From positions 137,850-169,849 of the forward strand of contig NZ_JBNNTG010000001.1 in the NCBI RefSeq assembly GCF_050278525.1: 32,000 nt of DNA, written 5' to 3'. This stretch comes from Peribacillus sp. NPDC096540. Lineage in GTDB: Bacteria > Bacillota > Bacilli > Bacillales > DSM-1321. Positions 8,923 to 17,792 of this stretch are shown here, piece after piece; position 1 is the first letter of the stretch, and the number at the start of each line of letters is the position of its first letter. Made by a program: the position numbers and the translations under genes. The notes under the pieces are model-generated. The model saw only the letters and a program-made list of their open reading frames with translations, was not told the origin of the DNA and ran no database searches.

Positions 8923-9501
8923 ATGCAAATGCCACAAATACAATTGCAGTCTGTCTCAATGAAGATTGGATTGAATATAGACCAACCTGTACAGGAAATT
9001 GAACAGAAGGCAGCGGACCAATCAATTGAACAGCCGAGAGCAATCTTAGAAATTCAGATAACCCCAGGGAAGCTAACGATTGATCAAACAAAAGCGAGAG
9101 AAGATATGGATTTGAAAAGCCTATCCAAGCGAGTTGAGGAATTTGCACAGCGGGGCTATCAGGATTGGCTGGCAGGTATGGCAAGAAGGTCACAGCAGGG
9201 CACGGAGCTGAGGCATATTGAAAAAGGCGGTAATGCACTCGCTGATCAAGCCAGGCAAAACAGCAAGGGGCCAGAAAAGCAATTCAATCTCGGTTGGGTT
9301 CCCTCTCATTTCAGTGTTCAGATGGACTATCAACCGGCCCAGGTAGAAATTGAAGCAACCCCTCAAAAACCGATCATCGATGTGCAGGTTAATAAACCAA
9401 ACCATACATACACGCCAGGTAATGTAGAAGTGGAAGTTTTACAAGAAAATTCACTGGATATAGATTTCATTAATTTGTTTCCAGATGAGATAGGTGAGTG
9501 A
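8923..9501 (+). CDS. yviE: YviE-like protein of unknown function (flagellar locus)
   Basis: ATG at 8923 lies behind AGGAGAGGAG. The position between flgL and fliW matches B. subtilis yviE. No recognisable catalytic motifs. Confidence 0.6.
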   Translation: MQMPQIQLQSVSMKIGLNIDQPVQEIEQKAADQSIEQPRAILEIQITPGKLTIDQTKAREDMDLKSLSKRVEEFAQRGYQDWLAGMARRSQQGTELRHIEKGGNALADQARQNSKGPEKQFNLGWVPSHFSVQMDYQPAQVEIEATPQKPIIDVQVNKPNHTYTPGNVEVEVLQENSLDIDFINLFPDEIGE

Positions 9502-9509
9502 GAACATAT

Positions 9510-9953
9510 ATGATTATACAGACAAAATTTCATAACGAACTCGAATTGGCAGAGAAAGAGATTTATGTATTTGAAAGCGGGATACCAGGATTTTTAGAAG
9601 AAAAACAGTTTTGCTTGCTAGCTTTGGGGGAAACGCCATTTGTCGTTCTGCAATCTATAACAACAAAAGAGGTTGCTTTTATCATGTTGAACCCTTTTGA
9701 TATTTTTCACGATTATGAAGTGAATCTTACTGATGAGGTACTATCTACTTTGCGAATAGAAGCAGAAAAGGAAGTCATTATGTTCGTGATTTTAACGATC
9801 CACGAACCATTCAATAAAACGACCGCTAATCTTCAAGCTCCTATCATTTTAAATAGCTCTAAAAAAACAGGAAAGCAGTTTATCATGAATGGAAGTGGCT
9901 ACATGACTAAGCATCTTCTTATTGAACCTTCAGTAGAACAGGAGGAAAAATAA
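9510..9953 (+). CDS. fliW: Flagellar assembly factor FliW (CsrA antagonist)
   Basis: [34 protein letters not shown] matches the FliW N-terminus as recalled. The stop overlaps the csrA start (TAATG). Confidence 0.9.
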
Positions 9954-10186
9954 TGCTTGTCCTAACTAGAAAATCTAATGAATCGATCATGATAGGTAAT
10001 GATATTGAAATTACGGTCTTAGCTATAGAAGGCGAACAGATCAAACTTGGTATCAATGCTCCAAAAAATGTCGAGATTCATCGAAAAGAAATCTATCTAT
10101 CTATTCAGCAAGAAAATAATGAAGCTACTAAAACAGAAACCAGTATTCTGGAAAATTTATATGAACATTTCAAGAAAAAATCTTAA
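9953..10186 (+). CDS. csrA: Carbon storage regulator CsrA
   Basis: [48 protein letters not shown] is a canonical CsrA sequence. Confidence 0.95.
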
Positions 10187-10323: not shown

Positions 10324-11547
10324 ATGATTATCAATCACAATATCTCAGCTCTAAACACGCACCGTCAATTATCAAGTGCAACGAATGCACAATCAAAATC
10401 AATGGAGAAACTTGCATCAGGTATGCGTATCAACCGTGCAGGCGATGACGCAGCCGGTCTTGCAATCTCTGAAAAAATGCGTGGACAAATCCGCGGTTTG
10501 GACCAAGCTTCCCGTAACTCCCAAGATGGAATTTCTTTAATCCAAACTGCCGAAGGCGCATTGAACGAAACTACAGACATTCTGCAACGTATGCGTGAGC
10601 TTGCTACACAAGCATCAACTGATACTAATACAACTAGTGACCGTGGAGAAATCCAAAAGGAAATGGATTCATTAACATCTGAAATTAACCGTATCGGTAA
10701 TACTACTGAATTCAATACACAGAAATTATTGAATGGTTCTAAAGACACGGCTACTCTTGCTAAAGATGCTGTTGCAGCAGAAGATGCAGTAGCTGGTGTA
10801 TATTCAATAGCTGGACCAACAGCGGATATTACAATTGATGGGAAAGACTTTGCTTATGATGCTGGTGGAGCAAAAGATTTTAAAGATGTAGATGAGTTGG
10901 TATCAGCAATAAATGCTGATACAGATTTAAAAACTAAGTACACTGCGAGTAAAGATGCAAGTGGTAAACTAGTATTAACACAGAATTCAGGTTTTGAATC
11001 AGCAACAGCACCAACAGGTGCAACATTCACAGAAGATACAGCAGGAAAAGCAGCTGTAGAGGCTAAAGATGCTGTTGAAGCTGGCTCAGGTCTTCAATTC
11101 CAAATCGGTGCAAACGAAAACCAAAGCCTGACACTTGAAATTGGTGACATGCGTGCAAGTGCTCTTGGGTTGACTGGTTCTGGTGCAGGGTTCACAACTG
11201 ATGCAAATGTAAGCAATGGTACAGATTCTAAAGGTGTTGAATCTGGCCTGGATGTTTCTAATGCTAAAAACGCATCAGCGGCTATCACAAAAATCCAAAC
11301 TGCAATTGACACAGTATCAGCTGAACGTTCTAAACTAGGTGCTAACCAAAACCGTTTAGAGCATACTATCAACAACTTAGGTACTTCTTCTGAAAACCTG
11401 ACTGCTGCTGAATCACGTATCCGTGATACAGATATGGCAAAAACAATGATGGAGCAAACTAAAAACTCTATCCTGGCGCAAGCATCACAAGCAATGTTGG
11501 CTCAAGCAAATTCCGCACCTCAAGGGGTTTTACAACTTCTAAGGTAA
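10324..11547 (+). CDS. hag: Flagellin (Hag/FliC), as read from unspliced DNA. An alternative spliced form would be join(10324..11502,11874..11918).
   Basis: MIINHNISALNTHRQL ... conserved D0/D1 N- and C-terminal helices ending QGVLQLLR, with an Ala/Thr/Asp-rich variable middle. Confidence 0.9.
   Translation: MIINHNISALNTHRQLSSATNAQSKSMEKLASGMRINRAGDDAAGLAISEKMRGQIRGLDQASRNSQDGISLIQTAEGALNETTDILQRMRELATQASTDTNTTSDRGEIQKEMDSLTSEINRIGNTTEFNTQKLLNGSKDTATLAKDAVAAEDAVAGVYSIAGPTADITIDGKDFAYDAGGAKDFKDVDELVSAINADTDLKTKYTASKDASGKLVLTQNSGFESATAPTGATFTEDTAGKAAVEAKDAVEAGSGLQFQIGANENQSLTLEIGDMRASALGLTGSGAGFTTDANVSNGTDSKGVESGLDVSNAKNASAAITKIQTAIDTVSAERSKLGANQNRLEHTINNLGTSSENLTAAESRIRDTDMAKTMMEQTKNSILAQASQAMLAQANSAPQGVLQLLR
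10759..10774 (+). repeat. 16-nt direct repeat copy 1 inside the flagellin variable region
   Basis: GCTAAAGATGCTGTTG is identical to 11062-11077. The offset is 303 nt (101 codons, in frame). Confidence 0.9.
11062..11077 (+). repeat. 16-nt direct repeat copy 2 inside the flagellin variable region
   Basis: GCTAAAGATGCTGTTG is identical to 10759-10774. Confidence 0.9.
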
Positions 11548-11873
11548 ATTTGAAGGGCGTTTTATCTAGTAATGGATAAAATTATAACTGGGTGAATTGC
11601 TGGAACTTCCTAAAGCTACATCAACCACAACGTAACTGGAAACGGTAAGCGTGAAGGTTTGAAAATGATGAAGATGATCCAATGGATAATCAGCAGCCAA
11701 GCTCCTTTGAGGAAACTCTGGAGAAGGTTCAACGACTAGGGTATACAGTCTAAGGCGAAGGCTATGACAATGAAATCCGTAGGGTGGCATAAGCCATTCG
11801 AAGTGCCCAGCCCCATAGAATAATATGGGTGAAGATATAGTCTATTCTATGTTCGAAAGACATAGTCGCGAAG
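11503..11873 (+). ncRNA. Group I intron (self-splicing ribozyme), ORF-less, IA-like. The core is certain; the splice boundaries are inferred.
   Basis: P AATTGCTGGAA at 11595-11605. Q AATCAGCAGC at 11688-11697. R GTTCAACGACTAGG at 11727-11740. S AAGATATAGTCT at 11832-11843. Supporting helices: P4 TTGCTGG/TCAGCAG; P7 GACTA/TAGTC; P3 CTGGGTG (11588-11594) with TGCCCAG (11804-11810); P8 CCCATA/TATGGG (11812-11829). P6/P6a (11702-11723) and P9 (11847-11865) both carry GAAA tetraloops. P2 is the hairpin at 11559-11582. The proposed 5' splice site follows U11502 (U.G with G11556) and the proposed omega-G is G11873. Confidence 0.8.
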
Positions 11874-11918
11874 CAAGCGAACCAACAACCACAAGGAGTT
11901 TTACAACTTCTTCGTTAA
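11874..11918 (+). other. Second copy of the flagellin 3' end (14 codons plus stop): putative 3' exon
   Basis: CAA GCG AAC CAA CAA CCA CAA GGA GTT TTA CAA CTT CTT CGT TAA encodes QANQQPQGVLQLLR*. It shares 33/45 nt and 12/14 aa with 11503-11547 and is in frame with exon 1 if joined at 11502/11874. Confidence 0.7.
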
Positions 11919-11934
11919 TTTTAGATTACTTGAA

Positions 11935-11966
11935 AGAGACTCTAGTTTTGCTAGGGTCTCTTTTGT
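11935..11966 (+). terminator. Rho-independent terminator following the second flagellin 3' end
   Basis: 11-bp stem AGAGACTCTAG / CTAGGGTCTCT (one G.U), 5-nt loop, then TTTTGT. No comparable terminator follows the first stop at 11547. Confidence 0.8.
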
Positions 11967-12304
11967 ATAGAAGGAAGCATGGAAAAAAAGTAGAGTTAAG
12001 GGTGAATGAAAATACTAGGGTGGAATCAGGATGGATAAGGCCCAACAAGATCAGAAGGAATTCCTCAAACACAGCTTAAATGGACCAAGGAACAGGTTCT
12101 TATTTTGGACGAGATGGAAGTGAAGTTATGAAATGAAAAGGATAGCAGAATATGCGAAATGAAATTGAGAGGCTAAATTGTGAACTGAATGTCCTAAAGA
12201 AAGAAGGAAATCAGTTACCCGGAACAACAGTTATATAAAGCACTCGGTTAGATAAGCATTACTATTGATAGGGTCTAGCACCTCGATACAATCACGAGGT
12301 GGAG

Positions 12305-13146
12305 TTAGTCTAGTTTTTTGATGTCTTGCCATTTGTAAGTAACTGACCAATAACTTCTTTTTAGCATCTTTGCAATTTCATTTGTTGTATAACCATTTTC
12401 TTTAAGTTGTCTTAGTAATTTAATTTCATCTTGAGAATAGGGTTTAGATCGATCTGAACTGCTGGTAAGAATCGTGTAATCAGGATACTTAGATTTCCAT
12501 CTGAGTATTTCCTTTTGATTTCGGAATTCCCAAGAGGTTTTATATAGCATAGAAGAACAAGTTTTTGCTACAGGTTCGATTAGTTTGAGGAAACGAAAAG
12601 TTTCTTTAACAGAAGTAGTTTTTAGAATATATCCATAACCATCCTTACGAGAACTCAACTTTAAGGATAAATGATATGTGGTAAATATAGTTCCTTTAGT
12701 TTCTCTAATTCGTCTTTAGGATAGCATTGAAGGTAAAGGTAAATATGCGGTGTGAGGTATATAATTCTCTTATTATGATTTATCCTAAATGAGATGCTTA
12801 ATGAGCCATCATCCATGTATAGAATAGTTAGGAAATGTGGTAAACGGCAATTTTTCACTAATGTGAAAGGGAGATGTTTAGTTCCATCTTTGCTGTAAAA
12901 GTGAGGAAATAAATTTGTGAATAATTCCAAAGAAGCGGAACGGACACATTGGCTAGCCGGAGTGATATACAATAATCCATCAAAAAAGGAAATTTTCCAT
13001 TTTCGATAATCTTCCTGAGATGTGCCGTAGTGTTCCCGGTAGCTATTGTTCTTTCTCCTGCTATTTTTATAAATTTTCGTAATTTAACCGTCACTTATAA
13101 TACTGGCATATAATATATTTTTCTGGATTTCAGTAAGATAAATCAT
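12305..13146 (-). pseudogene. Degenerate free-standing LAGLIDADG homing endonuclease gene (double-motif, C-terminal HTH)
   Basis: AAGGAGG RBS then ATG at 13146. Motif 1 is LTEIQKNILYASIISDG, followed by an in-frame TAA at 13084-13086. The same frame continues ...YREHYGTSQEDYRKWKISFF ... to motif 2, FLTILYMDDGSLS (about 12798-12836). A frameshift near 12660 leads into SSRKDGYGYILKTTSVKETFRFLKLIEP ... and an HTH-like tail DEIKLLRQLKENGYTTNEIAKML. Confidence 0.75.
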
Positions 13147-13265
13147 GAAAACCTCCTTATATAAGAGTGTATACTCTTCTTCTTAGTCCCATTCTATAAC
13201 GTTATCCCCTCCAATGGTAGAATGTTTGTTCTCTATTTAATGATAAATCCTTTGTATGTACACTG

Positions 13266-13324: not shown

Positions 13325-13687
13325 ATGCTGGAGAGTTTGTCCACGAATATTCTTTCCTCACAACTTAGAACAGCAATCTCAGACGGAATTAGTTCATATT
13401 ATCAACGTGAAATGAATACGCTTGCCTATTCAGAACAAAGTGTAGAATCTAATAATGAGCCTGCAAAAGAAAAGGTGAAAGAAGTAGTGGAAAGTTTGGA
13501 CGCCTTCCTGGATCCAACACATACGGCCATTCGTTTTGAGTATCATGAGGAGCTGAATGAGTATTATGTCAAGGTTGTGGATGACGTTACGGATGAGACG
13601 ATCAGGGAGATCCCTCCTAAGAAGTTACTGGATTTCTATGCGGCAATGACAGAGTTTGTCGGGATTATGGTGGATGAAAAAATATAG
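13325..13687 (+). CDS. flaG: FlaG family flagellar protein
   Basis: C-terminus IRFEYHEELNEYYVKVVDDVTDETIREIPPKKLLDF is the FlaG signature. It lies upstream of fliD. Confidence 0.85.
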   Translation: MLESLSTNILSSQLRTAISDGISSYYQREMNTLAYSEQSVESNNEPAKEKVKEVVESLDAFLDPTHTAIRFEYHEELNEYYVKVVDDVTDETIREIPPKKLLDFYAAMTEFVGIMVDEKI

Positions 13688-17479: not shown

Positions 17480-17792
17480 AACATTGGAACCATCTTGCTT
17501 TGTACATAAAATAGACAAAAACTATCATTAATTTTCTTGATTTTGTAATATTTTGTCGATAAAAAGTTGTATATTGTGGTAAATTAGCGACATAAAATAG
17601 CAATATTTGGAGTCGATATTAGCTATAATAAGATACTAAATATAGTATTTGTAATAATTACCCTGACAAAGGCAAACTTAGCGAAAGGTGAGGTCGCAAG
17701 GCATAGGTCTAAGGTTGCTTGATACTAAGATGGACTGGTCTGCTTAAAATACATACAAGTAGTATTTTAGGAGGATAAAAGAGGTGGTTTAA

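Follow-up and report, generated by a model that had tools for sequence, protein, structure and literature searches.

The flagellin gene hag of Peribacillus sp. NPDC096540 appears to be interrupted, 14 codons before its natural stop, by a 371-nt group I intron, and its last codons are present on both sides of most of that intron. The gene belongs to a flagellar locus contained in a 32,000-nt stretch of contig NZ_JBNNTG010000001.1 (positions 137,850 to 169,849), hereafter referred to as the window, in which the gene order is DUF6470, fliW (9498-9953), csrA (9953-10186), hag (from 10324), flaG (13325-13687), and fliD. The final 14 codons of hag together with the stop codon occur twice, as copy 1 immediately after exon 1 and as copy 2 after the intron. 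We consider it likely that the intron carries a surrogate of exon 2 within an enlarged P1 helix, and that a complete flagellin results both from the spliced and from the unspliced transcript.

Exon 1 of hag spans 10324-11502 (+), as delimited by the open reading frame (ORF) list and the in-frame join described below, and ends in ...AMLA; the last codon is GCU, of which U11502 would be the 5' splice-site base. Copy 1 (11503-11547, +) encodes QANSAPQGVLQLLR, terminates at the stop codon 11545-11547, and is an in-frame mimic of exon 2 that is coding in the unspliced messenger RNA (mRNA) and would be intronic in the spliced one. Copy 2 (11874-11918, +; stop codon 11916-11918) is exon 2 proper and encodes QANQQPQGVLQLLR, the canonical flagellin ending. 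The unspliced ORF (10324-11547) corresponds to the annotated flagellin of this strain, WP_427695535.1. A join of 11502 to 11874 is in frame and gives a flagellin of 407 amino acids (aa), and the copy 1 route gives a protein of the same length. The two copies differ at 12 of 45 nt (27% diverged; 73% identical), with six codons that differ synonymously, two replacements (S to Q and A to Q), and seven identical codons including the stop. The 60 nt upstream of the one copy show no similarity to the 60 nt upstream of the other, and the homology therefore starts exactly at CAA, which is preceded by T11502 in copy 1 and by G11873 in copy 2. All of these elements of the arrangement, from the two endings with their nucleotide and codon differences to the homology boundary, the flanking U and G, and the in-frame join, had been described in a first-pass annotation of this DNA and were reproduced when checked directly. 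As a pair of 45-nt direct repeats, the segments 11503-11547 and 11874-11918 could also permit deletion of the intron by DNA recombination, which would leave a chimeric ending.

Copy 2 is followed by a strong hairpin at ~11927-11967, not assigned to either strand (-20.5 kcal/mol, z -3.7), with an A-run before it and a U-run after it. It is probably a two-way terminator between hag and a convergent endonuclease gene. A simple terminator scan omitted this hairpin, which folding shows to be strong, and the same scan returned no + strand terminator-like site between 11548 and 11918. Both results agree with the first-pass proposal that a strong terminator lies after copy 2 and that transcription reads through the intron.

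Recurrence of the Twin Endings

One public genome per species was scanned with a pattern consisting of GAAGATATAGTC, a spacer of 15-45 nt, and CARGCNAAY, which represents the 3' motif of the intron and the start of exon 2. At least 119 loci were obtained, and all counts for the family given here are among the matches listed. Counting the window, 91 of these loci represent the 3' end of a flagellin gene; for 84 of the 91, the sequence extends at least 400 nt upstream. The twin layout is present in 74 of the 84 usable flagellin-intron loci, which come from independent assemblies. In each of the 74, the upstream flagellin ORF is complete, with its own Q[AS][NQ]xx[P]Q.VLQLL[RGQK] motif and stop codon, and the stop of copy 1 lies ~300-400 nt before the second, canonical ending in all but one (L055, 475 nt). 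The hosts represent at least about 30 named genera of Bacillales and Clostridia. Those in Bacillales include Peribacillus, Priestia, Metabacillus, Neobacillus, Rossellomorea, Sporosarcina, Planococcus, Exiguobacterium, Oceanobacillus, and Anoxybacillus, and those in Clostridia include Clostridium, Fusibacter, Caloranaerobacter, and several metagenome-assembled genomes. The nearest relative among the matches listed is Peribacillus muralis (L011), with 93% intron-core identity. Peribacillus muralis DSM 16288, Priestia megaterium BHS1, and Rossellomorea aquimaris are among the carriers that are tractable.

Judged by this recurrence, the twin arrangement is a family trait and not a local accident. 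The bare presence of a repeat might point to a recent local duplication, a recombination event, or an assembly artefact of this genome, but the same arrangement recurs in 74 of 84 loci from independent assemblies and ~30 genera, the two copies are 27% diverged, and an RNA helix has co-evolved with copy 1, so that the probability of such a local origin is vanishingly small. The first-pass annotation had also suggested that allele replacement or recombination in this genome gave rise to the two copies; this part of it is unsupported, because the hag loci of relatives show the arrangement to be old and common to ~30 genera. As for the duplication itself, either a single illegitimate insertion event placed intron core, exon 2, and endonuclease gene behind a resident stop codon, or paralogues underwent an unequal exchange, and the data fit both possibilities.

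The Ribozyme Fold

The intron (11503-11873, +; 371 nt) is without a credible ORF of its own and is of the IA type, with P7.1 and P7.2 helices. It matches the Rfam family Intron_gpI (RF00028) over 11529-11865 (+) with 87.1 bits and an E value of 3.8e-21, covering the full model (1-253), for which the gathering score is 50. Out of 66 core pairs of the family consensus, 64 are formed in the window. When RNAalifold was applied to 32 diverse relatives, compensatory changes were found at 47 of the 80 pairs in the consensus fold, and P2, P3, P4, P5 with its extension, P6, P7.1/P7.2, and further elements were recovered. The P2 hairpin (11561-11580, +) pairs 11561-11568 with 11573-11580, and its 8 pairs have changed on both sides in up to 15 of the 32 sequences. 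The catalytic core (11588-11865, +), as drawn from Rfam and RNAalifold, comprises P3 (11588-94/11804-10), P4 (11598-603/11690-95), P5 with its extension (11608-11686), P6 (11696-11728), the co-varying hairpins P7.1 (11739-11778) and P7.2 (11782-11799), the conserved segment GAAGAUAUAGUC (11831-11842), and the P9 hairpin (11847-11865), all on the + strand. P7.1 and P7.2 are flanked by the GUUCAACGACUA segment on one side and by the 3' strand of P3 on the other; by these two helices the intron would belong with subgroup IA (IA2-like), which is a resemblance and not a formal subgroup assignment.

To judge from the compensatory changes, the ribozyme fold is maintained in the family, and guanosine-dependent self-splicing is predicted for the intron in the window. 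A search of a phage database gave matches of ~75% that are confined to the conserved core, with partial similarity to introns of staphylococcal and other phages; neither a close relative of the intron nor a flagellin context was found in that database.

Predicted Splice Sites and the Extended P1 Helix

The proposed P1 (11500-11558, +) has a core formed by G11500-C11558, C11501-G11557, U11502.G11556, and C11503-G11555, in which the guide sequence is GGGC (11555-11558, +). It is continued by a P1 extension (+), supported by the minimum free energy (MFE) fold and by co-variation, in which 11507-11512 (CAAAUU) pairs with 11547-11552 (AAUUUG). Codons 2-4 of copy 1 lie in this extension and codons 4-15 make up the P1 loop. 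The MFE fold of 11494-11566 is identical to the P1 of the first-pass annotation, although as a single sequence it folds no better than shuffled versions (z -0.83).

A U at position -1 (codon GCU) before copy 1 and a G before copy 2 are found in 76 of 76 twin instances. The guide sequence reads GGGCGU in 66 loci and GGGUCY in 10, all but one of the latter belonging to Clostridia or unclassified Bacillota, and the 4-bp P1 core (GCU/C with GGGC or GGGU, the slash marking the splice site) can pair in 75 of 75 loci. This invariance is consistent with the splice site but not diagnostic of it, since the core never varies and the intronless flagellin paralogues in the same loci likewise use GCT.

The decisive evidence for the 5' splice site, as far as sequence comparison can provide it, is the co-variation of the P1 extension and not the invariance of the core. 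The 5-13 nt that follow the stop of copy 1 complement codons 2-5 of that copy, which are variable, and the two segments co-vary. There are 54 types of this helix, for example AATCAA/TTGATT, CACAACA/TGTTGTG, CAATAG/CTATTG, GAATACA/TGTATTC, CAAATAACC/GGTTATTTG, and CTCAACAA/TTGTTGAG, and at least five contiguous pairs are formed in 69 of 73 non-redundant loci. Cognate duplexes have a mean energy of -5.9 kcal/mol versus -3.8 kcal/mol for non-cognate ones, and 0 of 10,000 permutations reached the observed value (p<1e-4). Because the bases after the stop co-vary with codons 2-5, the 5' part of copy 1 would act as one strand of the extended P1 and its remainder as the P1 loop.

Two other approaches to P1 were rejected. 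Co-variation of the extension in fixed columns of MAFFT alignments could not be used because RNAalifold missed P1 and the register of the pairing is displaced by +/-1 from one locus to another; the alignment-free tests of cognate against non-cognate duplexes were adopted for this reason. The P1 placed by Rfam (11533-11541 with 11554-11562) forms a mean of 4.8 of 9 pairs, and its presumed splice-site base is a U in 28 of 75 loci. The P1 and P2 region also has size variants, namely L055 with an intron of 520 nt, L050 with a post-stop segment of 39 nt, and L046 and L102 with a P1 extension of ~15 bp; in the last two, the P1 helix spans most of the first eight codons of copy 1.

At the other end of the intron, a candidate 3-bp helix across the 3' splice site (11867-11879, +) consists of C11867-G11879, G11868-C11878, and C11869-G11877 and may present G11873, the omega-G, in its loop. 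Position -7 of the intron and position +6 of exon 2, a synonymous third base of an Ala codon, are G-C in 37, C-G in 23, U-A in 11, and unpaired in 5 of 76 loci; this helix is suggestive only, because the pairs represent just about three linked haplotypes. RNAalifold additionally pairs GUU-GC of exon 1 (11496-11501) with the omega-G and CAAGC of exon 2 (11873-11878) in 32 of 32 sequences, a pairing that is beyond a co-variation test, since double-sided changes are absent and most of the columns do not vary.

Coding Constraint on Both Endings

Synonymous (pS) and nonsynonymous (pN) differences were estimated by the Nei-Gojobori method over all distinct sequences. Copy 1 in its true frame has a pS of 0.67 and a pN of 0.17 (pN/pS 0.25), and its loop codons 6-14, which have no pairing role, have a pS of 0.70 and a pN of 0.11 (pN/pS 0.15). 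For copy 2 in its true frame the values are 0.62 and 0.10 (pN/pS 0.17), and for the last ten codons of exon 1 they are 0.46 and 0.12 (pN/pS 0.25). The shifted frames give a pN/pS of 0.87 and 3.6 for copy 1 and of 0.98 and 4.9 for copy 2, and two non-coding stretches of the intron give 0.6-1.2. When the comparison is limited to pairs with an intron-core identity of at least 90%, the pN/pS is 0.09 for copy 1 and 0.06 for copy 2. Between the window and L011, copy 2 differs by 7 nt in 4 codons, all synonymous, and copy 1 only by GGG/GGA and TAA/TGA. There are zero frameshift or nonsense changes in copy 2 of the 76 twin loci. Coding-type constraint is therefore seen in both copies (0.25 and 0.17, compared with 0.6-4.9 in the controls), and the earlier claim of two functional endings is well founded.

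It could be argued that the window holds an ordinary intron with an ordinary in-frame stop, for which only the spliced mRNA is useful, copy 1 is a leftover of duplication, and the unspliced product is negligible or discarded. It is indeed common for group I introns of bacteria and phages to contain an in-frame stop just past their start (PMC3984707), and three introns without a mimic (L079, L008, and L116) have a short P1 loop that contains a stop. Such a leftover is difficult to reconcile with copy 1, whose length (14 codons), frame, stop, and amino acids are kept in 74 of 84 loci amid abundant synonymous change, and whose unpaired loop codons have a pN/pS of 0.15 as opposed to 0.87 and 3.6 in the shifted frames. 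Moreover, the final residue of copy 1 tracks that of copy 2 in several hosts, both copies ending in ...LLG in L003, L089, and L112 and in ...LLQ in L018, L019, L094, and L117, with L085 as the exception (G in copy 1, R in copy 2). An ordinary stop of this kind is thus quite improbable.

The comparison with intronless genes indicates that copy 2 is the canonical ending and copy 1 the deviant version. Intronless flagellin paralogues in the same loci end in QANQQPQGVLQLLR in 9 of 11 cases, as does copy 2, and we take this canonical ending to resemble that of Bacillus subtilis Hag. Relative to its own copy 2, copy 1 is 35% diverged in the first 18 nt and 27% in the rest. The higher divergence at its 5' end may keep the junction of exon 1 and copy 1 from mimicking an intronless target, or may avoid a confusion of P1 and P10. 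Some intronless paralogues have non-canonical endings that are copy-1-like, such as QSQQASQGVLQLLR in L106 and QANAAPQGILQLLR in L022.

Natural Variants

Some loci have lost one of the two routes, and losses in either direction are seen. Oceanobacillus arenosus (L031) has two TAA codons that inactivate copy 1, an intact ribozyme and exon 2, and an intronless paralogue nearby. In Bacillaceae bacterium C204 (L049), the guide sequence and the 5' half of P2 have given way to an insertion that contains an ORF fragment; the flagellin ORF is still closed by copy 1, and exon 2 ends in ...LFR as opposed to ...LLR in most loci. Exon 2 is broken only in the 5'-truncated relics L013, L048, L086, and L100.

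A third type of variant lacks the mimic altogether. In Cerasibacillus (L079), the insertion site, the guide sequence, and exon 2 are the same as in the twin loci, but P1 is a short hairpin with a stop in its loop, and the unspliced ORF ends in ...AMLAQFEQVA. Since this is a same-site intron without a mimic, L079 could complete its flagellin only through a splice of the form GCU/...G/CAG. The splice sites 11502/11874 of the first-pass annotation thus draw support from L079, in addition to the U at -1 and the omega-G of all 76 twin instances. A neighbour-joining tree nests L079 among twin-type introns of Sporosarcina, at only ~78% identity, which suggests that its mimic-less state is a secondary loss rather than ancestral. 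In L008 and L116, a related intron lies 4 nt upstream (AUGCU/A GCN CAG), likewise without a mimic and with a short P1 loop containing a stop; it forms an outgroup in the tree of intron cores.

These variants bear on the possibility that copy 1 is the sole working ending and that intron, exon 2, and endonuclease constitute a selfish cassette in what is effectively a 3' untranslated region, with splicing rare or irrelevant. Exon 2 might then look coding because it is a recent resident exon, or because homing co-conversion or gene conversion from paralogues keeps it uniform. The annotated protein is the one that ends with copy 1, and no spliced counterpart is present in the protein collection; copy 2 is also nearly uniform across genera and matches 9 of the 11 intronless paralogues. 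The synonymous divergence in the copies exceeds the divergence of the intron core, which hints at recombination, and L049, with its disrupted ribozyme and an ORF closed by copy 1, is what a cassette would predict. Nevertheless, idle splicing would not readily account for a fold that many compensatory changes have preserved and that the window retains intact, and the omega-G is present in 76 of 76 loci. Copy 2 is unbroken in the 76 twin loci and disrupted only in truncated relics despite a pS of ~0.6, its pN/pS is 0.06 even among near-identical introns, and L031 and L079 depend on splicing. On balance, we regard copy 1 as unlikely to be the only working ending.

A Model for Optional Splicing

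The preferred reading, in which both endings work and the intron can be spliced or retained, may be stated as a sequence of steps. Transcription would start at the hag promoter, cross the intron and exon 2, and end at the ~11927-11967 hairpin. A ribosome that arrives at the 5' splice site ahead of P1 formation would read copy 1, stop at 11545-11547, and release a complete flagellin ending in QANSAPQGVLQLLR. A ribosome on copy 1 or its stop codon would occupy the strands of P1 (11500-11512 and 11547-11558). Given that both strands coincide with or adjoin copy 1 and its stop codon, translation should exclude splicing on the same molecule. In molecules that are untranslated or on which ribosomes are paused, P1 would form, the RNA would be cut after U11502, and exon 1 would be joined to C11874 after G11873 to give the canonical ending QANQQPQGVLQLLR. 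The burden that the intron places on this very heavily translated gene is expected to be small, because a working flagellin would arise either way. One may speculate that the mechanism suits a heavily translated mRNA that is gated by FliW and CsrA, both encoded just upstream (9498-10186). The core of the model was already part of the first-pass annotation and is supported by the sequence anatomy, the co-variation, and the coding constraint across loci; the recurrence in a family and the linked LAGLIDADG gene go beyond it.

Several observations weigh against this model of two working routes. The set of loci was chosen with patterns that demand some conserved codons; the same constraint is seen in the codons that the patterns left undemanded (codons 6-9 of copy 1 and 11-15 of copy 2). 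The coding-like pattern of copy 2 could be inherited in part from resident genes through co-conversion or gene conversion with paralogues. The exon part of P1 is an invariant 3 bp with no co-variation of its own. P10 is no more than a candidate pairing: TTG able to pair with the CAA of the exon is present in 59 of 75 loci, and in the window UUG (11550-11552) could pair with CAA (11874-11876), but TTG is expected anyway from Gln codons. Finally, many relatives have a second group I intron in hag, located after ...RIRDVD and without a mimic, as in L010 (6233-6582), L024 (5684-6033), L077 (1732-2087), and L049 (911-1274, -), and an intron can therefore reside in hag without a mimic. Where this second intron is present, the unspliced ORF is visibly truncated and ends in RIRDVDYALAA; its hosts need splicing there, since it has no surrogate exon. 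The thermophile relatives L010 and L077 contain two hag introns each, and the second site is empty in the window (11433/11434).

Whether these loci represent a widespread and overlooked class of splicing-optional bacterial group I introns, with a surrogate exon in the P1 loop, two protein isoforms in a ratio set by a race between ribosome and ribozyme, and dissemination together with an endonuclease, is in our estimation an even call. If they do, the surrogate exon in the P1 loop would insulate the host from splicing failure, and the isoform ratio could respond to the translational control of hag by FliW/CsrA or to temperature. The model predicts two diagnostic C-terminal peptides, ...AQANSAPQGVLQLLR versus ...AQANQQPQGVLQLLR, and natural knock-outs exist for each route, namely L031 and L079 on the one side and L049 on the other.

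Relation to Known Introns

Group I introns are rare in bacterial protein-coding genes, and the usual explanation is that ribosomes following the polymerase disturb the folding of the ribozyme (PMC3984707). The present family suggests an evolutionary answer to this problem, in that the intron supplies a copy of the missing exon and thereby renders splicing failure harmless. Self-splicing introns of group IA2 have been reported in flagellin genes of Geobacillus stearothermophilus and other thermophilic Bacillus (Hayakawa & Ishizuka 2009, 2012; cited in PMC3984707, PMC4853749), and their splicing was reported to be temperature dependent (PMC3984707, PMC4853749). As summarized in the citing papers, these are IA-type group I introns in flagellin genes of Bacillales, like the intron in the window, and the summaries make no mention of a duplicated C-terminus or a linked endonuclease gene. 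Going by the same summaries, the intron of Hayakawa & Ishizuka could occupy either the upstream site after RIRDVD or the site that bears the mimic.

The introns of phage T4 td, nrdB, and sunY and of Bacillus recA/nrdE likewise interrupt translated genes and have an in-frame stop near the 5' splice site, in or near P1 (PMC3984707). They share with the intron in the window an interaction between translation and ribozyme folding (PMC3984707). In those introns, however, the read-through peptide is junk and the product needs splicing, whereas the read-through in the window encodes a conserved and apparently selected substitute for the entire downstream exon. IStrons and the c-di-GMP-controlled group I ribozyme of Clostridioides difficile resemble the present case in that a choice in RNA processing alters the product (PMC4227781, PMC3984707). 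They employ alternative splice sites or a ligand-sensing aptamer, whereas the choice in the window would be between splicing and no splicing, with a built-in surrogate exon.

No account of a duplicated ending, a P1-encoded surrogate exon, or a linked endonuclease was found by full-text searches of the literature. The intron may simply have been overlooked, since the flagellin entry in databases is the unspliced ORF and the protein collection contains no spliced form. To an annotation pipeline the ORF would look complete, and the intron would be missed; introns can hide downstream of complete-looking ORFs, the window flagellin being annotated in its unspliced form. By extension, the C-terminal D0 sequences of flagellins in databases may be the surrogate and not the canonical version.

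The Linked Endonuclease Gene and Other Features

A free-standing LAGLIDADG homing endonuclease pseudogene lies at 12305-13203 (-), convergent with hag, and was identified with Pfam and tblastn. It carries an in-frame stop at 13086-13084 and a frameshift near 12700-12660. Pfam LAGLIDADG_2 (PF03161) matches the fragment 12661-12972 with an E value of 5.9e-7 and 30 bits; the window holds fragments only and no intact two-motif LAGLIDADG_2 domain. With the intact L077 protein as a tblastn query, residues 12-311 are covered in two frames at 55-61% identity. By tblastn, at least 25 loci have a LAGLIDADG homologue adjacent to exon 2 and on the opposite strand. Roughly 15 of the ORFs are intact, L024 and L077 among them, with lengths of about 260-350 aa; the three that were scanned with Pfam, of 278-351 aa, score 69-91 bits. 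The intact ORFs end 23 to ~340 nt past the stop of exon 2; in other loci the gene is decayed or missing. The closest solved structure is 6x1j, a weak match (E 1.6e-4).

An ORF-less intron next to a free-standing endonuclease gene has the layout of collaborative (trans) homing. By analogy, the element would have been moved by this endonuclease, whose gene lies tail to tail past exon 2 and is decayed in the window, and the enzyme probably cuts intronless flagellin genes at the insertion site. The known systems, cyanophage S-PM2 psbA with F-CphI and T4 mobE with I-TevIII (PMC3984707, PMC2790892, PMC6083498), also consist of an ORF-less intron and a free-standing endonuclease gene adjoining the interrupted gene. 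Unlike these phage examples, the present one is bacterial and chromosomal, involves an endonuclease of the LAGLIDADG type and a convergent gene, and has a presumed target; no exon duplication has been described for the collaborative homing systems. The family would add a chromosomal bacterial example of an ORF-less intron that travels with a neighbouring free-standing endonuclease.

Duplications of C-termini are known from fungal mitochondria, for example in atp6 and cob of Endoconidiophora resinifera, where a second copy of the 3' end is found beside LAGLIDADG or GIY-YIG genes and one copy closes the reading frame (PMC6279837). The fungal genes have no ribozyme to connect them with the displaced copy, usually a dead remnant, whereas both copies in the window are apparently selected and the intron can switch between them. 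Copy 2, the displaced copy here, has a pN/pS of 0.17 and is linked to exon 1 by the ribozyme, in contrast to the non-functional copy of the fungal type.

Elsewhere in the window, downstream of the flagellar genes, there is a c-di-GMP-I riboswitch aptamer at 17661-17746 (+), which was matched by Rfam with 47.1 bits and an E value of 2.2e-6.

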